Shown: positions 2,182 through 17,243 of the stretch, piece after piece
Position numbering within the stretch: position 1 is the stretch's first letter
Layout of the letters: every line of letters starts with the position of its first letter
Source of the DNA: Jiangella aurantiaca
Lineage (GTDB): Bacteria > Actinomycetota > Actinomycetes > Jiangellales > Jiangellaceae
NCBI RefSeq assembly: GCF_004349105.1
Contig: NZ_SMLB01000050.1
Coordinates: 2,393 to 34,392, forward strand
Length of the DNA: 32,000 nt
Reading direction: 5' to 3'
The notes under the pieces: generated by a model
Told to the model about the DNA's origin: nothing
Databases searched by the model: none
The model's input: the letters and a program-made list of their open reading frames with translations, nothing else
Translations under genes and position numbers: made by a program

Positions 2182-2922
2182 ATGACCGACCAGAACACTC
2201 CCCGCGTTGCGATCGTCAGCGGCGGCTCCCGTGGCATCGGCCGCGAGACCGCCGCCCGTCTGGGCCGCGAGGGCTACGCCGTCGTCGTCACCTACGGCAG
2301 CGCCAAGGAGGAGGGCGAGCAGGCCGCGGCCGACGTCGTCGCGGCCGGCGGGCAGGCCATCGCCGTCCAGGTCGACGTCGCCGACGAGCACTCCGTCGCC
2401 GCGGTCTTCGACGAGGCCGAGCGGGTGTTCGGCGGCGTGGACGTCGTCGTGAACTCCGCCGGAATCATGCGGCTCGCACCGGTGGCCGACCTCGATCTCG
2501 CCGAGCTCGACGCGCACCTGCGCACCAACGTCCGCGGCGCCTTCGCCGTCGACCAGCAGGCCGCCCGGCGGGTGCGCTCCGGCGGCGCGATCATCAACGT
2601 GTCCAGCTCGCTCACCCGGTTCTCGCGGCCCGGCTACGCCGCCTACGCGGCCAGCAAGGGCGCCGTCGAGGCGATCACCCTGATCCTGGCCCGCGAGCTG
2701 CGCGGCCGCGACATCACCGTCAACGCCGTCGCCCCCGGGCCGACCGCCACCGCGCTGTTCCTCGAGGGCAAGCCGCAGGAGCTGCTCGACCGGATGGCCG
2801 CCGAGCCGCCGCTGGAGCGCATCGGCCGGCCGGAGGACATCGCCGAGATCATCGCGTTCCTCGCCGGCCCGGCCCGCTGGATCAACGGCCAGACGCTGTA
2901 CGCCAACGGCGGCGCGATCTGA
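2182..2922 (+). CDS. SDR family oxidoreductase (FabG-like)
   Basis: Internal ATG at 2182 of ORF 1951..2922. Carries the motifs VAIVSGGSRGIGRE (TGxxxGxG), NSAG, and YAASKGAVEAIT (YxxxK). Confidence 0.9.
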   Translation: MTDQNTPRVAIVSGGSRGIGRETAARLGREGYAVVVTYGSAKEEGEQAAADVVAAGGQAIAVQVDVADEHSVAAVFDEAERVFGGVDVVVNSAGIMRLAPVADLDLAELDAHLRTNVRGAFAVDQQAARRVRSGGAIINVSSSLTRFSRPGYAAYAASKGAVEAITLILARELRGRDITVNAVAPGPTATALFLEGKPQELLDRMAAEPPLERIGRPEDIAEIIAFLAGPARWINGQTLYANGGAI

Positions 2923-2953
2923 CTCGGTCCCACCCACCGCAAGGAGACCCACC

Positions 2954-3844
2954 ATGAGCACGATCCTCATCAGCGGCGCGTCCAGCGGGTTCGGCGCCCT
3001 CACCGCCCGTGCCCTGGCCGACGCCGGCCACACCGTTTACGCCGGCATGCGCGACCTCGCCGGCCGCAACGCGCCTGCCGCGGCCGAGGCCAAGGCGCAC
3101 GCCGCCGAGCACGGCGTCGACCTGCGCGCCGTCGAGCTGGACGTCGCCTCGGACGAATCCGCCCGGCAGGCCGTCGCCACCGTCGTCGGCGAGCAGAACC
3201 GGCTGGACGTCCTGATCCACAACGCCGGCCACATGGTCACCGGCCCGGCCGAGGCGTTCACGCCCGAGCAGCTCGCCGAGCTCTACGACACCAACGTCGT
3301 CGGCACCCAGCGGCTCAACCGCGCGGCCCTGCCGGTGCTTCGCGGGCAGAACGACGGGCTGGTGGTCTGGGTCGGCAGCTCCAGCACCCGGGGCGGCACC
3401 CCGCCGTACCTGGCGCCGTACTTCGCGGCGAAGGCCGGCATGGACGCGCTCGCCCAGAGCTACGCGCTGGAGCTGTCGCGGTTCGGCATCGAAACCACCA
3501 TCGTCGTGCCAGGCGCGTTCACGCACGGCACCAACCACTTCGCGCACAGCGGCTCGCCCGCCGACGCAGCCGTCGTCGCCGAGTACGAGCAGAAGTACCC
3601 GCGGCTGATGGAGCAGGTCGCGCAGAGGCTCTCCGAGCTGGAGCCCGGGTGGGCCGACGTGGCGGACGTCGCCAGGGCGATCGTCGACGTCGTCGGCACC
3701 GAGAAGGGCCGCCGCCCGTTCCGCGTGCACATCGACCCGTCCGACGACGGCTCGGTCGTGGTCAACGCCGTCGCCGACCGCGTCCGCGCCGAGCTGCTGC
3801 GCCGCATCGGCCTCGACGACCTGCTGCACCCGAGCGTCGCATGA
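2954..3844 (+). CDS. SDR family oxidoreductase
   Basis: MSTILISGASSGFGALTARALADAGHTVYAG is a Rossmann motif, with NAG and YFAAKAGMDAL (YxxxK) downstream. AAGGAG lies 7 nt upstream of the ATG at 2954. Confidence 0.88.
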   Translation: MSTILISGASSGFGALTARALADAGHTVYAGMRDLAGRNAPAAAEAKAHAAEHGVDLRAVELDVASDESARQAVATVVGEQNRLDVLIHNAGHMVTGPAEAFTPEQLAELYDTNVVGTQRLNRAALPVLRGQNDGLVVWVGSSSTRGGTPPYLAPYFAAKAGMDALAQSYALELSRFGIETTIVVPGAFTHGTNHFAHSGSPADAAVVAEYEQKYPRLMEQVAQRLSELEPGWADVADVARAIVDVVGTEKGRRPFRVHIDPSDDGSVVVNAVADRVRAELLRRIGLDDLLHPSVA

Positions 3845-4749
3845 CGTTGGTCGACGTGCACGCGCACTTCCTCACCGAGGAGTACGTGGCCGCGGCCGTC
3901 CGAGCCGGGCACCTCGCACCCGACGGGATGCCCGGCTGGCCGCGGTGGTCCGCCGGTGAGCACCTGGCCCTGATGGATCGGCGCGGGATCGCCCGCGCCG
4001 TCCTGTCGGTGTCGTCGCCCGGAGTCCACTTCGGCGACGACGTCCGGGCGCGGGTGCTCGCGCGGCAGGTCAACGAGGCCGCGGCGGCGTTCGTCGCCGG
4101 CCGGCCGGACCGGTTCGGTTTCCTCGCCAGCCTGCCGCTGCCCGACCTCGACGGCTCCATCGCCGAGGCCGGGCACACGTTCGACCAGCTCGGCGCGGAC
4201 GGCATCGTCCTCCTGACGAACGCCGCCGGTCGGTACCCGGGCGATCCGCGGCTGGAACCGCTGTGGCGGTTGCTCGACGAACGGCAGGCGGTGGTGCTGC
4301 TCCACCCGACCTCGCCGCCGAACTGGCGCGACGTCGCGCTGGACCGGCCCCGGCCGCTCATGGAGTTCGTGTTCGAGGGCGTGCGCGCGGTCGGCGACCT
4401 GGTGCTCTCCGGCGTGCTGGCGCGGTACCCGCGGATCCGGTTCGTGGTCGGGGACGCCGGGTCGGTGCTGCCGCTGCTGGCGTCGCGGCTGGAGCTCCTC
4501 GCCGACGACGGGGTGCGGCTCTCGACGCACCTGGAGCGGCTGTGGGTCGACCTCGGCACGTCGGGCGTCTGGCCGTCGGGGTCCGAGCGGGTGGTCTACG
4601 GCAGCGGCTTCTGCTTCACCCCGGCCGACGGGGTCGCGCGGCAGCTGCGGCGACTGGACCGGACCAACCCCGGCTGGCGTGCGACGACGACGGCGAACAC
4701 GGCGAAACTGTTCGGCGGCGTGCCGGCACGGAGCCGAACCGGCTCATGA
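3841..4749 (+). CDS. amidohydrolase family protein (Amidohydro_2 / ACMSD-like metal-dependent hydrolase)
   Basis: The ATG at 3841 overlaps the upstream stop (ATGA). MTLVDVHAHFLTEEY is an HxH metal-binding start typical of Amidohydro_2. The ORF extension upstream of 3841 is out of context. Confidence 0.8.
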   Translation: MTLVDVHAHFLTEEYVAAAVRAGHLAPDGMPGWPRWSAGEHLALMDRRGIARAVLSVSSPGVHFGDDVRARVLARQVNEAAAAFVAGRPDRFGFLASLPLPDLDGSIAEAGHTFDQLGADGIVLLTNAAGRYPGDPRLEPLWRLLDERQAVVLLHPTSPPNWRDVALDRPRPLMEFVFEGVRAVGDLVLSGVLARYPRIRFVVGDAGSVLPLLASRLELLADDGVRLSTHLERLWVDLGTSGVWPSGSERVVYGSGFCFTPADGVARQLRRLDRTNPGWRATTTANTAKLFGGVPARSRTGS

Positions 4750-5143: not shown

Positions 5144-6691
5144 ATGTGTTACCAACGAACCGTGGACGTGGCGACGGAGACCAGCCCGCCGGGTGACCGG
5201 CTGCGGCGGCGGGCGTGGCGTGACTACTCCCGCCCGGCGACCTGGCCGTGGTGGCTACACCGGACGTTCACGCTGCTCAGCCCGGTTGTACTGGCACTGG
5301 CCGGCGCCTGGATCGCGCTCGCCGTCGCCGGCACCACACAGGCCTATGTGGGCCCCCTGGCCATCGACGTCGCGTTCCGGCCGACGCTGAGCGGCGAGTC
5401 GGTGATCCACCTCGACCCCGTCGGCGCCGTGGTCCTCGACACCCATTCCGGCCCGGTGACACTGGACATCTCGGTGCGCCAGGTCGATCTCGACGGCCTC
5501 AGCGGCTACGTCGACAACCCGTACTCGCTGTCCGGATTGGACGACGAGATCACCGCCGGCATCCAAGACGTGCTCGTCGACGCGGCGATCCGGGCCGCCC
5601 TGACGGCGGTCATCGGGGGCACGCTGGCGGCGGCGCTGGTGCTGCGGTCGGTCCGGCGGACGGCGCTGGCGGCCGGGGTGGCGACCGCCGCAGTGCTCGG
5701 CAGCTACGGGCTGACGGCGCTGACGTTCGACTCCGAGGCCGTCCGCGAGCCCGCCTACACCGGCCCGCTGGCGGCCGCGCCGCAGCTGATCGGCAACGCC
5801 GAGGACATCGCGACGAACTTCGACGCCTACGCCGACCAGCTGGCCGGGTTCGTCGCCAACGTCGCCGCCGTCTACGACACCACGCTCAACCTGCAGACGT
5901 TCCAGCCGAACGACGACACCATCCGGGTGCTGCACGTGTCGGACCTGCATCTCAACCCGGCCGCGTGGGACATCATCGACGCCGTCGCCGAGCAGTACGC
6001 CGTCGACGTCATCGTCGACAGCGGCGACATCGTCGACCAGGGCACGCCGCTCGAGAGCTCCTACGTGCGCCCGATCGCCGACCTCGGGCGGCCCTACGTC
6101 TTCGTCAAGGGCAACCACGACTCCGTCGCGACCGCCGCCGCCGTCGCCGCCGCGCCGAACGCCGTCGTGCTCGACGGCGAGCCTGCCGAGGTGGCCGGGC
6201 TGAGGTTCCTCGGAGCGCCGGATCCCCGGTTCACGCCGGACAAGTCCGTCCGCGGCGTCCCCGACGAGGTGATACGCGAGGGCACCGAGGAGTTCGCCGA
6301 CGCCGCCGAGGACCTCGAGCCGCCGCCGGACGTCATCGTCTACCACGACCCCAGTCACGCCGAGCTGTTCGACGGCATCGCCCCGCTGGTGCTCTCCGGG
6401 CACGCGCACAAGCGCGACACGTACGTCCTCGACGAGGGCACCCGGGTCATGGTGCAGGGCTCCACCGGCGGTGCCGGGTTGCGCGGACTACGTGACGAAG
6501 ATCCCACTCCGGTCAATCTGTCGGTGCTCTACTTCGATCCGGAGACGAAAGCGCTGGTGGCCTGGGACGATCTCACGCTCGGCGGCCTCGGCCAGACCAG
6601 CGCCGAGATCGACCGCCACCAGGCCGGCGAGGACGACGGCGCCGCTCAGGGGCCAGAAGACCCCTCGCCAGCTCCCGATTTGGAGAACTGA
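5144..6691 (+). CDS. membrane-anchored metallophosphoesterase
   Basis: Hydrophobic N-terminal segments are followed by calcineurin-like motifs LHVSDLHLN, DSGDIVDQG, VKGNHD and GHAHK. The start is uncertain: ATG at 5144 or GTG at 5162. The ORF portion 4679-5143 is antisense to the peptidase gene. Confidence 0.8.
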   Translation: MCYQRTVDVATETSPPGDRLRRRAWRDYSRPATWPWWLHRTFTLLSPVVLALAGAWIALAVAGTTQAYVGPLAIDVAFRPTLSGESVIHLDPVGAVVLDTHSGPVTLDISVRQVDLDGLSGYVDNPYSLSGLDDEITAGIQDVLVDAAIRAALTAVIGGTLAAALVLRSVRRTALAAGVATAAVLGSYGLTALTFDSEAVREPAYTGPLAAAPQLIGNAEDIATNFDAYADQLAGFVANVAAVYDTTLNLQTFQPNDDTIRVLHVSDLHLNPAAWDIIDAVAEQYAVDVIVDSGDIVDQGTPLESSYVRPIADLGRPYVFVKGNHDSVATAAAVAAAPNAVVLDGEPAEVAGLRFLGAPDPRFTPDKSVRGVPDEVIREGTEEFADAAEDLEPPPDVIVYHDPSHAELFDGIAPLVLSGHAHKRDTYVLDEGTRVMVQGSTGGAGLRGLRDEDPTPVNLSVLYFDPETKALVAWDDLTLGGLGQTSAEIDRHQAGEDDGAAQGPEDPSPAPDLEN

Positions 6692-6874: not shown

Positions 6875-6952
6875 GGTCCTGTGGAGCAGCTCGGAGTGCT
6901 CGCCGCCCTGTCAAGGCGGAGGTCGCGGGTTCAAGTCCCGTCAGGACCGCCA
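6875..6952 (+). tRNA. tRNA-Asp(GTC): tRNA-Asp (anticodon GTC), with encoded CCA
   Basis: Acceptor GGTCCTG/CAGGACC, D stem GAGC/GCTC, anticodon stem CCGCC/GGCGG with loop CTGTCAA, and T-arm GCGGG-TTCAAGT-CCCGT, followed by discriminator G and CCA. Confidence 0.95.
6908..6952 (+). repeat. attL core (inside the intact tRNA-Asp, from the anticodon loop to CCA)
   Basis: ctgtcaaggcggaggtcgcgggttcaagtcccgtcaggaccgcca is identical to 17188-17232. Confidence 0.9.
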
Positions 6953-6966
6953 GCAATACCAGCAGC

Positions 6967-8226
6967 TCAGAGGTCATCCTCTGGGCTGTTTTCATGTCCG
7001 GGGCCGGTCTCGTCGGCGGGCCGAGGCAGCGAAAAGGCATCGAACAGTCCCCTCACTCTGGTGCGTGCGCTTCCCGAGTCGTGCGTGTAGAGGTTGAGCG
7101 TCGTCGTCGCCTGTTCGTGCCCCATGACGCGCTGCACGTCGTTGACGGGCACGCCGTCGGAGACCAGCCAGGTCGCGTACGAGTGGCGCAGGTCGTGGAA
7201 CCGCAGCCCGCCGGAGGCCCGGCGAGACACCTCTTTGACGGCGGCGGCCTCGGTCTCGAAGGTCTCCGTCAGCTCTCGCCCGGCGTCGTCCTGCCACGTG
7301 CCCCGGTACACCTGCTCGCCCTCCTGGACCACCTTGCCCAGCAGTCCGGCCCGGACGAGCGCAGGACGCCACACACGGACGCGGAACAGCGTGCGTCGCA
7401 CCGGTCCCCCGGCCTGGTTCGTGAACACCTCCCCCGCGTCGCCCTGGCCGTAGCGGCGACGGTGGTCGCGTAGTGCGGTCACGACGAACGGCGGCAGCGG
7501 GACGACGCGGCGGCCGGCGCGCGACTTCGGGAACGGTTTGGTCGTGACGGCCCCGGCAACCTCGACGGCGACTCGCACGACGTGGACCTCCTCGGCGTCC
7601 AGGTCGACGGCGTCCCAGCGGAGGCCGGCGCACTCGCCCCACCGCAGCCCGGTTCCGCCCGCCAGCGCCACCAGGGCGCGATGACGCTCGGGAACGGCGG
7701 GCAGGAGCTGGCTCACGAACGCCTCACGGCTGATCGTGCGCTCGTCAGTGTCCGAACGACGGATCGCCGGGAGCTGGACGCCCTCGCACGGGTTGAAGGC
7801 CAGCAGCCGGTCACGGACGGCGAGCCGCATGATGCCCGCGAGCACGTGGAAGCACTTCCGCACGGTGGCCGGGGAGCGGGTGGCGTTCAGCTCCGAGACC
7901 CAGCGCTGGACCGACGAGTGGTCAATCTTGTCCAGCGGCACCGACCCCCAGCGCGGCAGCACGTGCGTCCGGAGGACGGAATCCGTGCGCACGGTGGTCG
8001 TCGTGGCGCTCGCCCGCCCAGCGACCCACGTCGCCGCGTAGTCGCTCAGACGGACCCGCCCGGCGCGAGGATCGACGTAGAGCCCGTGGTTCTTGGCCGA
8101 CTCGACCTCGGCGAGGAAGCGGGATGCCTCACGCTTGGTCGGGAACGACTTGGAGCGCTGGGCCCCGGACGGATCACGCCACGAGGCGCGGAAGGTCCCG
8201 GCGGTCGTCTTGCGTACGAAGCCCAT
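6967..8226 (-). CDS. int: tyrosine-type site-specific integrase
   Basis: Starts at the internal ATG at 8226 (MGFVRKTTAGTFRASWRDPSG..). Carries an N-terminal SAM-like/arm-binding region and catalytic-box motifs TGLRWGECAGLRWDAVDL, RFHDLRHSYATWL and GHEQATTTLNLYTH. Its start overlaps the xis stop by 1 nt. Confidence 0.93.
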   Translation of the reverse strand: MGFVRKTTAGTFRASWRDPSGAQRSKSFPTKREASRFLAEVESAKNHGLYVDPRAGRVRLSDYAATWVAGRASATTTTVRTDSVLRTHVLPRWGSVPLDKIDHSSVQRWVSELNATRSPATVRKCFHVLAGIMRLAVRDRLLAFNPCEGVQLPAIRRSDTDERTISREAFVSQLLPAVPERHRALVALAGGTGLRWGECAGLRWDAVDLDAEEVHVVRVAVEVAGAVTTKPFPKSRAGRRVVPLPPFVVTALRDHRRRYGQGDAGEVFTNQAGGPVRRTLFRVRVWRPALVRAGLLGKVVQEGEQVYRGTWQDDAGRELTETFETEAAAVKEVSRRASGGLRFHDLRHSYATWLVSDGVPVNDVQRVMGHEQATTTLNLYTHDSGSARTRVRGLFDAFSLPRPADETGPGHENSPEDDL

Positions 8227-8504
8227 CAGAACAGTCCGTCCTGGCCGGGGAGCAGCGGGCCGGGCTCCGGATCGGGCTCGAGGGTGACGTTCTCCAGCCA
8301 GTCGTGGAACGCCTGTTTGGGGATGACCCAGCGGCCGCCGAGCTTGCGTGCGGGGATGTCGCCGGAGCGCACGAGGGCGTAGGTGCCGCCGAGGGCGAGG
8401 TTCAGCAGCTCGGCGACCTCGGCGACGGAGTAGACGAGGGCGTCGACGCGGGGCTGTTGTCCTGGCGGCCGGTGGGCGTCGAGGCGGATCACGTTGTCGG
8501 GCAT
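8226..8504 (-). CDS. xis: excisionase-family helix-turn-helix DNA-binding protein
   Basis: 92 aa. VYSVAEVAELLNLALGGTYALVRSGDIPARKLGGRWVIPKQAFHDWL is the excisionase/MerR-like HTH pattern. The gene sits immediately upstream of int. Confidence 0.8.
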   Translation of the reverse strand: MPDNVIRLDAHRPPGQQPRVDALVYSVAEVAELLNLALGGTYALVRSGDIPARKLGGRWVIPKQAFHDWLENVTLEPDPEPGPLLPGQDGLF

Positions 8505-10063
8505 GGCGGGGTTCCTTCCGGGGAGGACGGGTCGGTTGCCGAAACATCACTGGACGGCGGTCCGGTGGCCTGTTTGGCGGCGTCGTACTGCTCGCGCCAG
8601 CGGCGGCGTTGTGCGATCGACTTGGCGACGGCCCACACGTAGGAGGGCGCGTCGGGGTCGCCGGGTCGGACCGGGGTCCAGATGTAGCGGGCCTTGCCGT
8701 CGGGTGCGGTGGCGGTTGCCGAGAGCTGGTCGTGGTCGTCCATCTCGATGCCGGCTTCGGCGAGGACGGCCCGGACGACGGCGGCCCGGTCGGCGCGGTG
8801 CTCGGTCAGCGTCTTGCCGGTCCACTTGCGCGAGACGAGGACGCGGCGGCCTCCGAGCCCCAGGTGGTCGCGGTCGTGGGCCTTGGATGTGCAGCGGCCG
8901 GGTTCCATGCCTGGCTTGGCATTCTTCGGCTGAGTGCCGTAGCGCAGCCAGTTCGCGCATGTCGGCGAGCACGGGAGCCAGCGGACTTCCTCGGCGAGGC
9001 GGTCGATGTGGGCGCGGCGAGCGGCCGAGATGCGGTTCGGGTCGTCGATGTCGAGTGGTTCGGCGATGGACTTGGTCAGGTACTTCGTCAGGTAGCCGAC
9101 GCGGCGGTCAGCGGCCGGTGTCCCGGCGAGGATGCCTTGCAGGTCGACCTGGACACCGAAGCGCAGCACGTGCACCGGCTCTGGTTCTTCGCCGAGGTCG
9201 AGGCCGTCGCCGTTGTCGACGTAGTCCATCGCCTCGTCCCAGGTCGGCAGCATCCAGCCGCCGTCATCGACGTAGCCGCCCTGTTCCTCGTCCCACGCCG
9301 GCCAGCCGTCGCGGTAGTGGTGGACGTGGTTGATGCCGGGCCACCAGACCTGGTGGTACGTGGCCGCGACGACCTGCTTGATGAGCTTGCGCGGGATCGC
9401 TCCACGGATGGCGGCGTGCAGGTGCGGCGCGAGGCGTTGTTGCGGTTCGACGGCGGCGAAGTACTGCACGTTGTAGCCGGTGGCGCGGCGAAGGTTCTGC
9501 CAGAACCGGTCGACGAGCTTCGGGAAGTGCATCGCGTCCAGCGCTGCACGCCGGTAGTCGTAGCGGTCCGGGTCGACCGGGACGCCCTCGTCGGTCACGC
9601 GCCCGTAGGACGGCATCGTGAGCGTGAGGAACATCGACGGCCGGTAGGTCTTGCCGTCCGGGGCATCGAAGGTCCGCCCGACGGTGTGGCCCGAGACCGG
9701 CAGCCGAGGTAGGTCAGGCACGTCCTCACGTCGTCTGGTGGACCGGACGCGCCGTTCTGTCGCGTCGTCCTCGTCGTCGACTGTGGGAGTCTCGTCGTCG
9801 CCCTCTGTGGCGTCGGGGCCGGCGAGCTCGGGTTCGGTGTCGAGGTGCCAGCCCTCGCGGCACTGCTGCATCCGCAACCGGCGAGCCCGCTCCGCGCAGG
9901 ACGGGCAGACCGCCTCACGGGTCGCGCCACACGCGATCGTCACCGTGCGCACGTCGCCGGTTGTCGTGTCGGTCACCCTCGACAGGACCGGACGCACGCA
10001 AGCGCCGACGAGCACAGCAGCACCGCGGACCAGCTCGCCGGACAGGGCCGGGCCGAGCACCAT
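8489..10063 (-). CDS. repSA: RepSA-type replication initiator protein
   Basis: Starts at the internal ATG at 10063 (MVLGPALSGELV..). Motifs CGATREAVCPSCAERARRL, FLTLTMPSYGRV and APHLHAAIRGAIPR match my memory of pSAM2 RepSA-family initiators. The start overlaps the upstream gene stop by 1 nt, and the 3' end overlaps xis by 16 nt. Confidence 0.85.
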   Translation of the reverse strand: MVLGPALSGELVRGAAVLVGACVRPVLSRVTDTTTGDVRTVTIACGATREAVCPSCAERARRLRMQQCREGWHLDTEPELAGPDATEGDDETPTVDDEDDATERRVRSTRRREDVPDLPRLPVSGHTVGRTFDAPDGKTYRPSMFLTLTMPSYGRVTDEGVPVDPDRYDYRRAALDAMHFPKLVDRFWQNLRRATGYNVQYFAAVEPQQRLAPHLHAAIRGAIPRKLIKQVVAATYHQVWWPGINHVHHYRDGWPAWDEEQGGYVDDGGWMLPTWDEAMDYVDNGDGLDLGEEPEPVHVLRFGVQVDLQGILAGTPAADRRVGYLTKYLTKSIAEPLDIDDPNRISAARRAHIDRLAEEVRWLPCSPTCANWLRYGTQPKNAKPGMEPGRCTSKAHDRDHLGLGGRRVLVSRKWTGKTLTEHRADRAAVVRAVLAEAGIEMDDHDQLSATATAPDGKARYIWTPVRPGDPDAPSYVWAVAKSIAQRRRWREQYDAAKQATGPPSSDVSATDPSSPEGTPPCPTT

Positions 10064-10392
10064 CACAGCCTTCCTGCCGGTCGCGGCGTGACCATGAACT
10101 CCGGCTCGTCGTCCTCCAGCCGGTACACGGGCAGCGGCCGGCGCAGCTCGGCGGGATCGACGGCCGGTGTGGCTTCCATCAGGCCGTGCACGCAGTGGCA
10201 GGCGTCCAGCGGACCGATCACGCCGAAGCCGTCGCAGTCGATGCACACGATCCACACCGACCTCTCGTGCAGACCGATGCAGCGTGGCGACGTGCACCAC
10301 CGGTATCCGCACCAGATGCACACCTGGGCGAAGTTCAGCCGCAGCGGGCGGAGCGTCGCCGCCGTGGCTGAGGCAAGTGCCTGGGTCGTCAT
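10063..10392 (-). CDS. small Cys-rich (putative zinc-binding) protein in the pra position of the element
   Basis: ATG at 10392 is preceded by GGAGG with a 5-nt spacer. 109 aa containing CIWC, CTSPRC, CIDC and CHC clusters. Translationally coupled to repSA. Confidence 0.6.
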   Translation of the reverse strand: MTTQALASATAATLRPLRLNFAQVCIWCGYRWCTSPRCIGLHERSVWIVCIDCDGFGVIGPLDACHCVHGLMEATPAVDPAELRRPLPVYRLEDDEPEFMVTPRPAGRL

Positions 10393-10437
10393 CGTGACCT
10401 CCGGGGATAGGAGATGACTCCATTCGACACGCAACAC

Positions 10438-10555: not shown

Positions 10556-11320
10556 GTGGCGGACTTCAGGGGTCGCCCTGCCTACCTGCAGATCGCTGAC
10601 GACATCCGCAGCCAGATCCTCGACGGCACGTTGCAGGCCGAGGACCGGTTGCCCAGCGAAGCCGACCTCATGGCCGACTACGGCGTCTCGCGCATCGTCG
10701 TGCGCAACGCCGTCGAAGTCCTCCGCTCCGAAGGACTCGTGGTCAAGCAGCAGGGGCGCGGCAGCTTCGTCCGCGCACAGCGACCACAACGCACCCGCGT
10801 CGTCGGCGACCTCTACAGCGAGCGCCCCGAAGGATCGCCGTTCGCGGCGTCAGCCCGAGCGTCCGGCCAGGTCCCGGAGTGGGAGTACCAGACCCGCCGC
10901 ACCACCGCATCCAAGACGATCGCCGACCGGCTCGGCATCGCGGCCGGCGACCCGGTGATGCGCACCAGCTATCGGTTCTTCGCCGACGGCGAGCCCGCGA
11001 TGCTCTCAACCTCGTTCGAACCCCTGGCCATCACCGAAGGCACACCCGTCGAACAACCCGAAGGCGGCCCCGTCACCGGCGTCGTGCCCCGGATGGACGC
11101 CATCGGCATCCACATCACCCACGTCGTCGAGGACGTCACCGGGCGGTCAGCGCGACCCTATGAGGCCGAGACACTGAAGGTCCCGGTCGGCGTGCCCATC
11201 CTCGCGATCGAACGCACCTACTACGCGAAGAGCCGGCCCGTCGAGACCGCCGACATCGTCGTCTCCTCCGACCGCTACGTCCTCTCCTACCGCCTCCCCG
11301 TGCCACCGCGGGCGGACTAG
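10556..11320 (+). CDS. GntR family (HutC/UTRA-type) transcriptional regulator, KorSA-like
   Basis: RLPSEADLMADYGVSRIVVRNAVEVLRSEGLVVKQQGRGSFV is a GntR wHTH, and the C-terminal length is consistent with a UTRA domain. GTG at 10556 lies after GAGGGGAGGG. The gene is divergent from the repSA operon, as korSA is in pSAM2. Confidence 0.9.
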   Translation: MADFRGRPAYLQIADDIRSQILDGTLQAEDRLPSEADLMADYGVSRIVVRNAVEVLRSEGLVVKQQGRGSFVRAQRPQRTRVVGDLYSERPEGSPFAASARASGQVPEWEYQTRRTTASKTIADRLGIAAGDPVMRTSYRFFADGEPAMLSTSFEPLAITEGTPVEQPEGGPVTGVVPRMDAIGIHITHVVEDVTGRSARPYEAETLKVPVGVPILAIERTYYAKSRPVETADIVVSSDRYVLSYRLPVPPRAD

Positions 11321-11694: not shown

Positions 11695-12204
11695 ATGGCC
11701 TATCGAAACAAACTGTACATCGCCTTCGACGGCGACAACGACATGCGCTGGTACCGCCTATTGACGGCATGGGAAGCCAATAAGAACATCGATTTCGACT
11801 TCCACAATGCTCATGACTTGCATCCGGCCCGAGACACGAGCCTGCCGGATTCCATTAAGGCGCAACTGCGCAAGCGGATGCAAAGCTCGAAGACGTTTCT
11901 GCTTTTGGTCGGGGAGCGGACCAAGTACATCCGCGGCTACATTCCATGGGAGATCGAGTACGCGCGCCACCTGGACCTGCCGATCGTCGTCACCAATCTA
12001 AACGACAAACGACGGTACGATTCCGATCTGTGTCCCAGTTCGATCCCGAGCGGTAAAGGCGCAGTGCACGTTTCCTATGAGGCACAAATCCTAAAGCACG
12101 CACTCGATAATTGGCCGATCTACTACGCCTCGAATCGGCAGAAGGTGCTTGACGGCGTGTGGCATTACGACGATGAGATCTACAAGAGCGTGGGCCTGGG
12201 ATAA
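11695..12204 (+). CDS. thsB: TIR-like domain protein (MTH538/ThsB-like, DUF1863-type)
   Basis: 169 aa. KLYIAFDGDNDMRWYRLL.. and ..KTFLLLVGERTKYIRGYIPWEIEYA match the ThsB TIR-like pattern, with a putative catalytic Glu at W85-E86. AAGGGGG RBS precedes the start. The sequence is lower in G+C. Confidence 0.8.
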   Translation: MAYRNKLYIAFDGDNDMRWYRLLTAWEANKNIDFDFHNAHDLHPARDTSLPDSIKAQLRKRMQSSKTFLLLVGERTKYIRGYIPWEIEYARHLDLPIVVTNLNDKRRYDSDLCPSSIPSGKGAVHVSYEAQILKHALDNWPIYYASNRQKVLDGVWHYDDEIYKSVGLG

Positions 12205-12269: not shown

Positions 12270-13127
12270 GTGACTCTCACGCGCGACCTTAGGAACAAGC
12301 GCTTCTGGCGGGGCCTTACTACGCACGGCCTCGCCGCTCTCGGTGCCCTATCCGCGACACTTGGGCTGTATGACCTCTTCTCGCCCGATTCCCTGGGAAG
12401 GCTCGACCTGCCCGAGATCATGCTAGTTCCCGCAGTCGCGCTCGCCTACGCCGCGTGGAAGTCATGGCCCTACCCAGTGGAGCAGCACTACGCGACGCCA
12501 GACACCAAGATCCGTTTAGTGACCGGCGATCTGTTCGAACAGGGCACTAACCTCGTCATCGGCATGGCGGATACCTTTGACATCGAAACGCCGCACATCA
12601 TTGCGACCGGAAGCGTGCAGGGCCAGTTCCTCGACCGTGTCTACCACCACGACGTGGCAGCCTTGCGCTCAGATCTAGAGGCTGCACTCATCGATAAGGT
12701 GCCGATTGAGACGGGTGTGGCGAAGCCCGGGAACACGGACCGCTACCCCCTGGGTACCGTCGCTACTATCTGCCACCAGCGCACTCACTATTTCTGTGTT
12801 GCCTATACGCGTATGGACGAGAACAACAATGTGTCGTCATCCATCGCAATATTGTGGGAAGCGCTAGAAAGACTTTGGGACGAGGTCCGGGCTCGCTCCA
12901 ACGGCGAGCCGGTCTCCGCGCCTGTGATCGGACTTGGACAGTCGGGCATGTCGACCGTCCTTCCCATCCAAGACGCCATTCGATTCCTCATCCTCTCATT
13001 CATGTTCGCTTCACGCCGCCAAAGAGTATGCGGGGAACTATTCATCGTAATTCGCCCACAGGACGAGAGGCGGATTGACATGCTTGAGATCCAAGAGTTC
13101 CTCCGGTCCTTGAGGTTGTCTTCGTGA
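12270..13127 (+). CDS. thsA: ThsA-like effector: two N-terminal TM helices plus a C-terminal ThsA-type Macro domain
   Basis: 285 aa. Hydrophobic segments GLTTHGLAALGALSATLGLYDLF and IMLVPAVALAYAAWKSW are followed by IRLVTGDLFEQGTNLVIGMADTFDIE..GSVQGQFLDRVY..APVIGLGQSGM, resembling PF20016/DUF6430. GTG start at 12270. Confidence 0.72.
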   Translation: MTLTRDLRNKRFWRGLTTHGLAALGALSATLGLYDLFSPDSLGRLDLPEIMLVPAVALAYAAWKSWPYPVEQHYATPDTKIRLVTGDLFEQGTNLVIGMADTFDIETPHIIATGSVQGQFLDRVYHHDVAALRSDLEAALIDKVPIETGVAKPGNTDRYPLGTVATICHQRTHYFCVAYTRMDENNNVSSSIAILWEALERLWDEVRARSNGEPVSAPVIGLGQSGMSTVLPIQDAIRFLILSFMFASRRQRVCGELFIVIRPQDERRIDMLEIQEFLRSLRLSS

Positions 13128-13555
13128 GCCATCTCGTTGTTCCAGATGTATACCCCTGTCCCTTCTGTGACTACCTTAGCGGTGCTCGACCGTATACGAT
13201 CCTCCACCGAGAAGCGGACGCAGCAATCCTCGTTACGCGTGAGCAGCGTGGAGCTTCCCACCTTCTGGTCGTTACTGAACGCCACGCCCCAACAATCCTC
13301 GAACTTCGCACCGCAGAGTCGCATGCGGTGATTGAACTAGTGCGCATGGCTGCCAGATTGATAGACCAGGCAGAACAGCGGCCGGGGATTAGCGTTTGGC
13401 AGAACAATGGCGCGGCCGCTCACCAGACGATACCTCACGTGCACTTTCATATCGCTGGCACACTCCCAGAAGGCGGTACCGATTGGGAGGAGGTTCACGA
13501 ACTCAGCATCGAAGAGACCGATGCCATGGCCGAGCGCCTGCGTGCGTACTTCTAG
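13124..13555 (+). CDS. HIT (histidine triad) family nucleotide hydrolase/transferase
   Basis: 143 aa with CPFC near the N-terminus and NNGAAAHQTIPHVHFHI (HxHxHxx). The GTG start overlaps the upstream stop (GTGA, 4-nt overlap). Confidence 0.88.
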   Translation: MSHLVVPDVYPCPFCDYLSGARPYTILHREADAAILVTREQRGASHLLVVTERHAPTILELRTAESHAVIELVRMAARLIDQAEQRPGISVWQNNGAAAHQTIPHVHFHIAGTLPEGGTDWEEVHELSIEETDAMAERLRAYF

Positions 13556-13667: not shown

Positions 13668-13688
13668 GCGGCGCGCTCCGCGCGCCGC
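13668..13688 (+). terminator. GC-rich hairpin (9-bp perfect stem, 3-nt loop) downstream of the HIT operon
   Basis: gcggcgcgc-tcc-gcgcgccgc. There is no U-tract. It lies about 110 nt after the HIT stop, at the point where composition returns to high G+C. Confidence 0.3.
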
Positions 13689-14203: not shown

Positions 14204-15292
14204 ATGCAAGCCGAGCTCGAAGAGACACTCCTCCTCCAGGAGGAATGGACAGCCGACAACACAGAGGCGATGCAGCGTCGCGGTGTCCTCGTTCGGCAGA
14301 TGATCCCTCAGTGGCTTCGACAACAGCTCAATGAACCGACCTCCACAGCCGTTATGAGTGACCTCGCCGTGGAGGGACGTGATGGCACCGGCAGAAAGAC
14401 TGAGATCCCCTGGACTCGTGTCTACTCAGCGCGCCGATCACCCTCCGCAACCCAGGGCTGGTACATCGTCTATCTGTTCAGCGCGTTCGGAGATCGGGTC
14501 TACATCTCCTTGAACCAGGGGACGACAAGGTGGGAAGGCGGCGAGTTCCGCCCGCGCGCTGGCGAGGAGCTTGCCGCCCGCGTCTTATGGGCGCGGAATG
14601 TCCTCGGCATCACCTGGGCCAATGAACTGGCCTTGGATATTTCACTGGAGGCTCGGCGGTCCAACCTGGGTCATCAGTACGAGCTCGGCAACGTGGTGGC
14701 TATTGAGTATCCGCTCAACAGCATCCCGGACGATGCCGCCCTGGCCTCTGACCTGCGGCGCATGATCGACTGGCTCGGGCGGATCTACGAGGCTGAGGAG
14801 ACCTCACTGACGATTCCGGGTGAACCGGCGGCCGAGATCGCGGACGCCCTCGTCGCGATACGTCAGGCCGCAGGCTCGGCTCGCAAGACCGGGCAGGGTT
14901 TCCGCCTGAACACCGCTGAGAAGCTCGCGATTGAGAAGCATGCCGTTCAGGTTGTCACGAAGCACTACGAGGATCTCGGTTACAGCGTCGATGATGTCGG
15001 AACCAAGCAGCCGTTCGATCTCGATGTGAAGCGAGGAGACATCCATCTAAGTGTGGAGGTCAAGGGCACCACATCCGTCGGTGCCGAGGTCATCCTGACC
15101 AGCGGCGAAGTGAATCACCACCGCGAGCGGTTCCCGAACAACTCCCTGGCCATCGTCCACTCGATCGAGCTCAACAGGTCTGATGAGGCCCCCATGGCCA
15201 CCGGGGGCGAGCTGCACATCGTCAGCCCGTGGGAGGTCGAGGACTCCGACCTCATCCCACTGGCCTTCAAGTACCAGACAGGGCTGACCTGA
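14204..15292 (+). CDS. MrcB-like N-terminal domain (DUF3578) fused to a DUF3883 nuclease-like domain; candidate modification-dependent (type IV) restriction protein
   Basis: 362 aa. The N-terminal half, GRKTEIPWTRVYS..ATQGWYIVYLFSAFGDRVYISLNQG, matches the DUF3578 pattern. The C-terminal half, EKHAVQVVTKHYEDLGYSVDDVGTKQPFDLDVKRGDIHLSVEVKGTTS..VILTSGEVNHH, matches the DUF3883 PD-(D/E)xK-like pattern. Confidence 0.8.
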   Translation: MQAELEETLLLQEEWTADNTEAMQRRGVLVRQMIPQWLRQQLNEPTSTAVMSDLAVEGRDGTGRKTEIPWTRVYSARRSPSATQGWYIVYLFSAFGDRVYISLNQGTTRWEGGEFRPRAGEELAARVLWARNVLGITWANELALDISLEARRSNLGHQYELGNVVAIEYPLNSIPDDAALASDLRRMIDWLGRIYEAEETSLTIPGEPAAEIADALVAIRQAAGSARKTGQGFRLNTAEKLAIEKHAVQVVTKHYEDLGYSVDDVGTKQPFDLDVKRGDIHLSVEVKGTTSVGAEVILTSGEVNHHRERFPNNSLAIVHSIELNRSDEAPMATGGELHIVSPWEVEDSDLIPLAFKYQTGLT

Positions 15293-15330: not shown

Positions 15331-15708
15331 TTACACAGCGTGAAGACGGATGGGCTTGTTGAGTGCGTCCGCCAGGTGAGAGAGGTCGCCGGGGTCGCTG
15401 GTCACGACCAGGTCGCCGCGTGACAGGGCGGAGATGACGACCGTGGCGTCGACAACGTCGCTCGTCCTCGCAGTGGCACACGCAGCGCCGGCTTCGCGGG
15501 CGAGTTGTTCGCTCATCGGCTCGATCTTGCAGCCACGCAGCAGGCGTGAGAGCTGGTGTTGAGGGCCGCCGCGCCATGCCTGCGCCAGGACGGCGGCGGG
15601 CACGACGGGGCGGATCTCGTGGCGCAGAGCGTCACGGTGCAACGCCCAGATATCGACTCGATTGGCTTCCGCCGCGACCAGCGCGCCGGTGTCGTAAGTG
15701 ATGCCCAT
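15331..15708 (-). CDS. vapC: PIN-domain type II toxin (VapC family)
   Basis: 125 aa. MGITYDTGALV.. supplies the N-terminal acidic residue, and DVVDATVV and VVTSDPGDL are PIN acidic motifs. The start overlaps the antitoxin stop by 1 nt. Confidence 0.85.
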   Translation of the reverse strand: MGITYDTGALVAAEANRVDIWALHRDALRHEIRPVVPAAVLAQAWRGGPQHQLSRLLRGCKIEPMSEQLAREAGAACATARTSDVVDATVVISALSRGDLVVTSDPGDLSHLADALNKPIRLHAV

Positions 15709-15962
15709 CAGTCGGTGATGACGCCCTCGCGGACCAGCACGTCGTGCGCCTTGCGCGCTTCATCGGCCGGGATCGGTCCGTGCTCGGCCTCGAACTCCTC
15801 AACGGCCAGCAGGCCATCGAGGACGGCCGCGCGCTCCGCCGGCATGATTGCAGCCAGGCGGACTCCGTGGTCGGTCAGGTAGATGACCTCCCCGGTGGAC
15901 GTGGCTCGGCTGATCACCTCGCTGAGGTGATCCTTCGCGTCCTGCACCGGCATCTCGGACAT
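15708..15962 (-). CDS. Phd/YefM-type antitoxin
   Basis: Starts at the internal ATG at 15962, giving 84 aa. MSEMPVQDAKDHLSEVISRATSTGEVIYLTDHGVRLAAIMP is the typical Phd/YefM N-terminus. Confidence 0.8.
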   Translation of the reverse strand: MSEMPVQDAKDHLSEVISRATSTGEVIYLTDHGVRLAAIMPAERAAVLDGLLAVEEFEAEHGPIPADEARKAHDVLVREGVITD

Positions 15963-16123
15963 AGTCCCAGCGTACGGCAGAAGCTCAGCAGACACAGCAG
16001 TCCTCACTCTCGATCGAGACGACGCAACGCTTGGGAACGATCGCTCGTCGTTGCAGCTTGTTGTACGGAACGGCTGATCCCGTCGCACCATCAGCGGATG
16101 CGACGAGACCAGCCGACACATCG

Positions 16124-16938: not shown

Positions 16939-17187
16939 GGGTCTCTCCCTGGTAGGTCAGGTTGGGATCAAGTCCCCGGTCCGGTGTTAGCGCACCGGCC
17001 GGGGGCGACTACTCATGAGGACGCGCAGGCATCAGGTGGGCCGCGTGGCCGTGCAGCGACGAGGCAGCGATGAGGCATCAGAACCCGCACCGCCGACGAC
17101 CAGCGGCCGATATCAACCGCCATACTGACCTGCGCAGATGCACCACCAACGGCAACGGACGACAGCGGACGGCGAGCCCGATCCGCA

Positions 17188-17232
17188 CTGTCAAGGCGGA
17201 GGTCGCGGGTTCAAGTCCCGTCAGGACCGCCA
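17188..17232 (+). repeat. attR core (duplicated 3' part of tRNA-Asp)
   Basis: Identical 45 bp to 6908-6952. The upstream sequence does not complete a tRNA. Confidence 0.9.
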
Positions 17233-17243
17233 AGAACAGCAGG

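Follow-up and report, generated by a model that had tools for sequence, protein, structure and literature searches.

The gene at positions 13124 to 13555 (+ strand) of the window, by which we mean the whole 32,000-nucleotide stretch of Jiangella aurantiaca contig NZ_SMLB01000050.1 analyzed here, encodes a 143-amino-acid HIT-family hydrolase immediately downstream of a Macro-type Thoeris effector. Judged by its profile matches, this gene is almost certainly thsC, the third gene of "Thoeris type II" in the PADLOC sense. ThsC is inherited together with one clade of Macro-type ThsA effectors across phyla, where it may degrade the signal that activates them. The call rests on the open reading frame (ORF), the Pfam family PF01230, the PADLOC profile PDLC00441 and an AlphaFold2 (AF2) model.

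The dedicated PADLOC-DB profile (PDLC00441, "ThsC2|ThsC, HIT family") matches the protein over practically its full length (E 6.5e-69, residues 2–142 on profile positions 4–144 of 148). An earlier reading made from the sequence alone had presented the gene as an undescribed third component, with no HIT partner of Thoeris known, and had offered an off-switch as its first proposed role. Both points repeat a published description, since the PADLOC model exists and Payne et al. 2021 (NAR, PMC8565338) reported an extra HIT-domain gene in 167 Thoeris systems (2.4%), coined the names ThsC and Thoeris type II for the HIT-bearing arrangement, and already proposed a ring-nuclease-like off-switch role for ThsC, while also leaving open "formation or degradation". 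That paper built its idea on v-cADPR, a variant form of cyclic ADP-ribose (ADPR), and on NAD+ depletion, and the word "Macro" is absent from its text. In the literature searched we found no other paper tying HIT proteins to Thoeris or phage defense and no experimental study of the ThsC protein; the experimental papers on Macro-type Thoeris make no mention of a HIT gene. A 2025 preprint gives the name "ThsC" to the Macro effector, which has made the name ambiguous; we use it here in the PADLOC sense. NCBIfam has no specific model for ThsB, ThsA, or ThsC.

The sequence-only reading was right that this is a real HIT enzyme gene. Pfam PF01230 matches ThsC with E 8.6e-12 and 46 bits (cut-off 21.5), and the triad stretch, NNGAAAHQTIPHVHFHIAG, contains H105-V-H107-F-H109-I-A in agreement with the H-x-H-x-H-x-x signature. 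The triad codons H105-V-H107-F-H109 occupy 13436..13450 on the + strand (H105 at 13436–13438, H107 at 13442–13444, and H109 at 13448–13450), and H107 is expected to be the nucleophile. Toward the N-terminus of the HIT domain, the motif YPCPFCDYL holds C12 and C15, the C12-P-F-C15 codons forming a CxxC at 13157..13168 (+ strand). Annotation of J. aurantiaca contains a protein 100% identical to ThsC, and likewise one identical to ThsA.

Translation of thsC starts at a GTG codon (from the ORF list of the window), a start position that is kept among homologues. This codon (13124–13126) overlaps the TGA stop of thsA (13125–13127), giving a GTGA overlap at 13124..13127 on the + strand, and a GAGG sequence lies at 13112–13115, 8 nt 5' of the start. 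The overlap places thsC in one transcript region with thsA. The translational coupling of the HIT gene to the Macro-type thsA that had been proposed on the basis of this overlap is strengthened by the homologous loci described below, where 55 of 67 have an overlap of the same kind. Consensus scans for promoters and terminators between 11300 and 14300 returned background-level hits only and were uninformative on operon structure. A GC-rich inverted repeat, GGCGCGC-TCC-GCGCGCC, lies at 13669–13686, about 115 nt past the thsC stop, and could be a terminator lacking a T-tract; it was not flagged by the terminator consensus scan.

Strong evidence that ThsC belongs with its neighbor comes from a census of genes adjoining ThsA, as the sequence-only reading had proposed. 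Motifs from an alignment of 24 ThsA homologues were used to seed 68 loci from contigs of one genome per species, and genes were placed at each by tblastn. The loci fall in Actinomycetota (56), Pseudomonadota (10), Eremiobacterota (1), and Saccharibacteria (1), and their ThsA proteins are 36% to 79% identical to that of the window. In 67 of the 68, the gene immediately 3' of ThsA and in the same orientation is a ThsC-like HIT gene with 47–74% identity. Because the seeding motifs came from this ThsA clade, the count holds within the clade and not for all Macro-type ThsA. The start of HIT runs into the stop of ThsA, with 4 nt shared at 38 loci and 1 nt at 17; at others the two genes are separated by 1–8 nt (9 loci, L020 among them) or by 40 nt (1 locus). 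An apparent fusion of ThsA and HIT at L020 proved to be a script artefact, as a TAA stop parts the genes. In 2 contigs from metagenome-assembled genomes (L032 and L033, ~5860–6320), the HIT gene is broken by a frameshift that puts its N-terminal half in one frame and its C-terminal half in another, reflecting either sequencing error or a pseudogene.

The sole HIT-less locus of the 68 is in Amycolatopsis bartoniae (L037, 4054–5861), where the ThsA relative adjoins an NgoMIV-like restriction gene and is preceded by a CAP12/Pycsar-type TIR (PF10137, E 1.8e-23), not by a ThsB-type TIR. This may be a distinct TIR-Macro system. The loss of HIT coincides, in this single instance, with a change of TIR family. 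A suspected Nudix box in the 485-amino-acid helix-turn-helix (HTH) protein downstream was considered as a HIT substitute and rejected, as Pfam shows no Nudix match there.

In a group of Micrococcales loci (L048–L066, including the ThsA at L055, 4950–6244), the effector is fitted better by the PADLOC "ThsA1" profile (PDLC00415) than by "ThsA2". A ThsC-like HIT gene lies directly downstream of ThsA in all of them, so the published division into type I and type II may undercount HIT-linked systems.

The partners of thsC in the window are thsB (11695..12204, + strand), which encodes a 169-amino-acid TIR-like sensor and signal synthase (PF08937, E 2.3e-15; PADLOC PDLC00429, E 3.7e-66), and thsA (12270..13127, + strand), encoding a 285-amino-acid effector that combines a ThsA-type Macro domain with 2 helices at the N-terminus (PF20016, E 6.4e-52; PADLOC ThsA2 PDLC00439, E 5.9e-121). 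All 3 genes are on the + strand and together fill a dip in GC content to 57–61% at 11.5–13.6 kb of a window that otherwise runs at about 68–72%. That the HIT gene shares the low G+C of an acquired cassette was correctly noted in the earlier reading: GC is 0.579 in thsC (0.59 at third codon positions, GC3), 0.547 in thsB, and 0.587 in thsA, as compared with a window average of 0.68 and with 0.69–0.71 (GC3 0.80–0.88) in the genes int, repSA, and gntR of the surrounding element. ThsB is also matched by PDLC00440 (E 1.2e-58). Its E86, in a W-E-I-E context, is shared by no fewer than 95% of 59 sequences, and we take this residue to be the catalytic glutamate.

These 59 ThsB sequences fall into at least 3 lineages: 54 form a PDLC00440 majority, those of the window, L016, L017, and L025 belong to PDLC00429, and that of L039 belongs to PDLC00421. 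All 3 accompany HIT, so the suggestion that the HIT gene co-varies with one particular ThsB clade does not hold. Pairwise distances of ThsA and HIT are correlated (r = 0.76, Mantel p = 0.001), while those of ThsA and ThsB give r = 0.37 over all taxa and 0.74 once 5 loci with a replaced ThsB are left out. An initial impression of co-evolution between HIT and ThsA that left out ThsB (0.76 versus 0.37) was therefore weakened by dropping these 5 loci, and the correlations of 0.76 and 0.74 indicate that thsB, thsA, and thsC usually travel together. What holds firmly is the position: swapping or moving ThsB leaves HIT beside ThsA. The TIR gene lies downstream at several loci, on the opposite or the same strand, and HIT still comes right after ThsA where ThsB has been replaced or relocated (L016, L017, L023, L025, L039, L053, and L064).

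The window itself looks like one such case. Its ThsB is 69% identical to those of 2 Amycolatopsis loci (L016 and L017) and 34–45% identical to the majority lineage; the nearest relatives of its ThsA (L001 and others, 75–79% identity) carry a majority ThsB that is 34–40% identical to the window protein. The gap between thsB and thsA is 65 nt; most loci with thsB upstream on the same strand have −4 to +5 nt. A minority ThsB beside ThsA and ThsC of the majority type, together with this unusual gap, suggests recombinational replacement of the TIR gene in the window lineage.

Both the fold and the active site of a HIT enzyme are intact in ThsC. The AF2 model (pLDDT 87.5) has the HIT alpha+beta fold, and the best Foldseek match is an uncharacterized bacterial Hit-like protein (3lb5, TM 0.82–0.86), followed by Fhit (TM 0.68–0.79) and Hint, at probability 1.00. 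Among solved structures, 3ksv is nearest in sequence (E 8.2e-12), and the CxFC motif also occurs in the generic HIT proteins 3ksv and 3l7x. Across homologues of 45–70% identity, C12, F14, C15, H46, H54, W92, Q93, N94, N95, G96, and Q101 are invariant, as are H105, H107, H109, T113, T119, and E126; the triad histidines are unchanged both in 20 diverse homologues and in 38 closer ones. A search at E ≤ 1e-3 gives 795 homologues. The ThsC family itself is small and distinct, with 8 clusters (50% identity) at E ≤ 1e-30 and 111 at 1e-10 among 1.84 billion representatives.

Retention of the third histidine (HxHxH and not HxHxQ) points to a hydrolase rather than a transferase of the GalT/Ap4A-phosphorylase kind. 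The H-x-H-x-Q signature of the latter is absent from ThsC, H109 being invariant, and none of the NCBIfam transferase models comes near its cut-off. Within the hydrolases, a ThsC profile aligned with human FHIT, a HIT enzyme that cleaves pyrophosphates, without gaps over 90 columns (probability 97.2, score 68.8) and with HINT1 at probability 95.7 and score 54, a small difference. In the same alignments the invariant T38-R39 of ThsC falls on FHIT N27-R28, and threonine takes the place of the ribose-binding Asp43 of Hint. The nucleotide-binding strand thus reads L-V-T-R in ThsC and L-V-N-R in Fhit, as against D-I-x-P with its ribose-binding aspartate in Hint. By these sequence comparisons ThsC appears slightly more Fhit-like than Hint-like, which weakly favors a substrate with a pyrophosphate linkage (an ADPR conjugate, for instance) over a phosphoramidate.

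The AF2 model of ThsA (pLDDT 86.9) has long N-terminal helices (10–37 and 47–65) and a Macro domain; the helices, putatively membrane-spanning, are only moderately hydrophobic (Kyte-Doolittle ~1.5). Foldseek places the Macro domain closest to 8r66_A, bound to histidine-ADPR (His-ADPR; TM 0.82 normalized to the target), with 8v6q, 8v6r (ADPR), and 8v6s (imidazole adenine dinucleotide) also near (target-normalized TM ~0.8). We mapped the His-ADPR contacts of 8R66 onto ThsA by sequence alignment, with residue equivalences that are tentative because identity is only ~21–25%. By this mapping the adenine-binding aspartate (D100 of 8R66, D87 in the window) and Q135 (Q119) are kept, N133 is changed to Q117 and S194 to T180, and Y277 aligns with a variable position, R262 in the window. 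The equivalent of R240, which in ThsA_amylo contacts the histidine carboxylate of His-ADPR (8R66), is arginine in 46 of 59 sequences and glycine in a sub-clade of 13 made up of the window (G226, codon 12945–12947) and L001–L014. This arginine-to-glycine change does not track the unusual ThsB lineage of the window, a possibility that we considered, and instead marks the sub-clade as a whole. G226 may point to a different ligand or binding mode in these proteins. Since D87 is kept and the Macro domain is nearest to structures with ADPR-type ligands, the ligand is still likely to be an AMP-containing derivative of ADPR that a HIT enzyme could cleave.

ThsC-like genes also occur outside Thoeris. 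A metagenome scan seeded with a 20-sequence ThsC alignment yielded 265 confirmed loci, of which the best 80 were kept, and context was scored for the 72 in which 300 nt or more precede HIT. ThsA was directly upstream in 48 of these, and neither ThsA nor ThsB was present in the other 24. All but 3 of the orphans, the latter in unrelated contexts, form one tight clade (21/24) whose members are 83–100% identical to one another and ~60% identical to the window protein. Neighbors in this clade are a divergent LysR gene or a 488-amino-acid ORF overlapping the HIT start, and metal-resistance genes or a LysR regulator stand beside some orphans on metagenomic contigs. For the orphan HIT of L077, the PADLOC ThsC profile gives E 2.5e-66. 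HIT proteins of the ThsC type are consequently not exclusive to Thoeris. No phage-borne counterpart was found, the 50,697 phage records searched containing generic HIT proteins only, at less than 30% identity.

Six soil-metagenome contigs (L076, L077, L080, L088, L090, and L092) carry a 487–489-amino-acid ORF followed by HIT with an ATGA overlap (in L077, ORF 2532–3995 and HIT 3992–4450); L108 has only a weak partial match to this ORF. A protein with AAA_16 and TPR domains precedes it in 3 contigs, and in the sister contigs L087 and L106 a divergent LysR gene occupies its place. No Pfam or PADLOC domain was found in the ORF, which is either a partner of the orphan HIT or a spurious product of high GC content.

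Our preferred but tentative reading, to which we give somewhat less than even odds, is that ThsC hydrolyzes the pyrophosphate of the ADPR-derived signal and so sets the threshold of the membrane effector and resets it. Upon infection, the ThsB TIR would convert NAD+ to an ADPR-derived signal, His-ADPR being the signal in the only characterized Macro-type system, and this signal would bind the Macro domain of ThsA and turn on the membrane effector. H107 of ThsC would attack the alpha-phosphate of the AMP moiety to form a covalent His-AMP intermediate, splitting the pyrophosphate to leave AMP and a phosphoribosyl conjugate. Presumably present constitutively beside ThsA, ThsC would clear basal and leftover signal and thereby provide both an activation threshold and a reset, as a ring nuclease does in type III CRISPR.

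Several points weigh against this proposal. The characterized Macro-type Thoeris works without a HIT gene, which means that there is no general need of an off-switch. Positions equivalent to N133 and Y277 differ in this ThsA clade, and that of R240 in the sub-clade of the window, so the signal may not be His-ADPR. The preference of ThsC for FHIT over HINT1 is small. With orphans making up about one third of the metagenomic ThsC-like genes, the enzyme may act on a common cellular nucleotide and not on a dedicated signal. We know of nothing that shows HIT enzymes accepting ADPR conjugates, and the literature searched contained no biochemical or genetic report of ThsC activity. Comparative data cannot separate a degrader of the signal from a maturase or a scavenger of by-products.

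A maturase would turn the TIR product into the true ligand of ThsA, by trimming or nucleotidyl transfer, and would be needed for activation. The near-obligate link to the ThsA clade (67/68) and the co-evolution of ThsA with ThsC are in keeping with such a role, as are the differences of the ThsA pocket at the His-ADPR contact positions of 8r66 and the "formation" half of the alternatives allowed by the PADLOC authors (PMC8565338). The ThsC motif, however, is of the hydrolase type and not the HxHxQ of transferases and phosphorylases, and removal of AMP would lose the adenine for which the Macro domain has kept D87. A generic degrader is also easier to reconcile with the occurrence of ThsA/ThsC pairs alongside 3 ThsB lineages. 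We regard maturation as unlikely. In a further and more novel reading, ThsC carries out an obligatory step of signal chemistry, remodeling the TIR product or itself serving as the histidine-bearing acceptor, so that the whole ThsA clade senses a messenger other than His-ADPR. This seems to us rather improbable; if it were true, TIR and HIT would constitute a two-enzyme signaling pathway that is new to Thoeris.

It is likewise unlikely, in our judgment, that ThsC leaves the signal untouched and instead hydrolyzes free ADPR or other AMP-containing TIR by-products that would block the Macro pocket, sharpening signal discrimination. Free ADPR can occupy such pockets, since a related ThsA Macro domain was crystallized with plain ADPR (8v6r), and the orphan genes suggest a substrate that is present in uninfected cells. 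Cells nonetheless already own Nudix ADPR pyrophosphatases, and by-product clearance does not specifically predict so tight a translational coupling to ThsA.

A role in counter-counter-defense or as a second effector appears quite doubtful. ThsC would in this case destroy phage-made nucleotides (decoys, alarmones of the diadenosine polyphosphate [Ap(n)A] type, or adenylylated intermediates) or deplete a nucleotide pool in an abortive response, and HIT enzymes do use many nucleoside monophosphate-X substrates, the fold of ThsC being nearest to uncharacterized bacterial Hit-like proteins and Fhit. Against this, ThsC is a bare 143-amino-acid HIT domain that would be constitutively active since it has no sensor or regulatory domain, the phage records offer no close homologue that would hint at an arms-race target, and the conserved adjacency to ThsA is left unexplained. 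Finally, although orphan ThsC-like genes exist, the idea that a housekeeping HIT gene lies beside the Thoeris pair by chance is effectively refuted by the adjoining HIT in 67 of 68 ThsA relatives across phyla (55 overlapping), by the low GC that thsC shares with the acquired cassette, and by the membership of ThsC in a small distinct subfamily of 8 clusters at E ≤ 1e-30.

Type III CRISPR is known to have host enzymes, the ring nucleases, that degrade the signal of their own defense system. To our knowledge no such signal-degrading enzyme has been demonstrated for Thoeris or for other TIR signaling, and if ThsC is indeed an off-switch, it would be the first host-encoded enzyme to degrade a TIR-derived signal. 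It is an obvious candidate for this role, tied to the Macro-transmembrane (Macro-TM) effector clade and not to the SIR2 type, almost never lost there, and tolerant of TIR replacement, and the compact three-gene system makes the hypothesis readily testable.

The cassette sits within a repeat-bounded element of about 10.28 kb. Repeat comparison identified a 60-nt direct repeat at 6903..6962, a putative attachment site formed by the 3' part of a tRNA-Asp gene (6875–6952), and a right copy at 17183..17242 that is 92% identical to the left one. Pfam matches identify a tyrosine integrase (6967–8550, − strand), an HTH_17 excisionase-like gene (8226–8504, − strand), a pSAM2-type RepSA (8489–10423, − strand), and a GntR/UTRA regulator (10556–11320, + strand). 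Downstream of the Thoeris genes lies a 362-amino-acid MrcB_N/NOV_C protein (14204–15292, + strand; MrcB-like N-terminal domain E 3.4e-35, NOV_C E 2.6e-6), whose gene has an intermediate GC of 0.617 and may be a second, restriction-like defense gene. It is followed by a PIN-domain gene that overlaps a Phd/YefM-like antitoxin gene by 1 nt (15331–16121, − strand), the PIN match falling just below the Pfam cut-off (E 1.5e-4); the pair is probably a VapBC-type addiction module. By its gene content the whole looks like a small pSAM2-like actinomycete integrative element with defense and addiction cargo. From the GntR gene to the right repeat no ORF exceeds 362 amino acids, so there is no obvious transfer gene of the FtsK/Tra type, and the transfer module may have been displaced by the defense cargo. 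The window itself adds only one more member of a catalogued system and an example of defense cargo on an actinomycete integrative element.

Compared with the Thoeris type II of PADLOC (ThsA2/ThsB2/ThsC2; PDLC00439, PDLC00440, and PDLC00441), the window has the same three-gene make-up, and the corresponding type II models cover the full length of its ThsA (E 5.9e-121) and of its ThsC (E 6.5e-69). ThsB differs in fitting PDLC00429 ("ThsB1", 220 bits) above the type II model PDLC00440 (196 bits). The paper that introduced this type (PMC8565338) is silent on the partner ThsA being of the Macro type without a SIR2 domain. The type II system of the Sorek laboratory, from Bacillus amyloliquefaciens Y2 (His-ADPR, 8R66), likewise combines a TIR sensor with a Macro ThsA bearing N-terminal helices, but it consists of 2 genes and has no HIT, whereas the system of the window has 3 genes, and sequence identity is only ~21–25%.

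At the level of the enzyme, ThsC has the fold, the HxHxHxx motif, and the His/Asn/Gln active-site set of Fhit and Hint (human FHIT and HINT1; 3lb5 and 3ksv), and it shares its N-terminal CxFC with many bacterial HIT proteins. It is only 20–28% identical to Fhit and Hint, and has a family-specific strand, T38-R-E-Q-R-G43, where Hint has D-I-x-P; past the triad it further conserves G117-G118-T119 and E126, followed by a C-terminal helix at 129–140. With the ring nucleases of type III CRISPR (Crn1, Crn2, and Crn3/Csx3), ThsC shares the proposed role only, that of a small, co-encoded degrader of the messenger that limits or resets the response. The folds are unrelated, and whereas ring nucleases cleave the phosphodiesters of cyclic oligoadenylates, the bond broken by a HIT enzyme would be a pyrophosphate, by way of a His-AMP intermediate.

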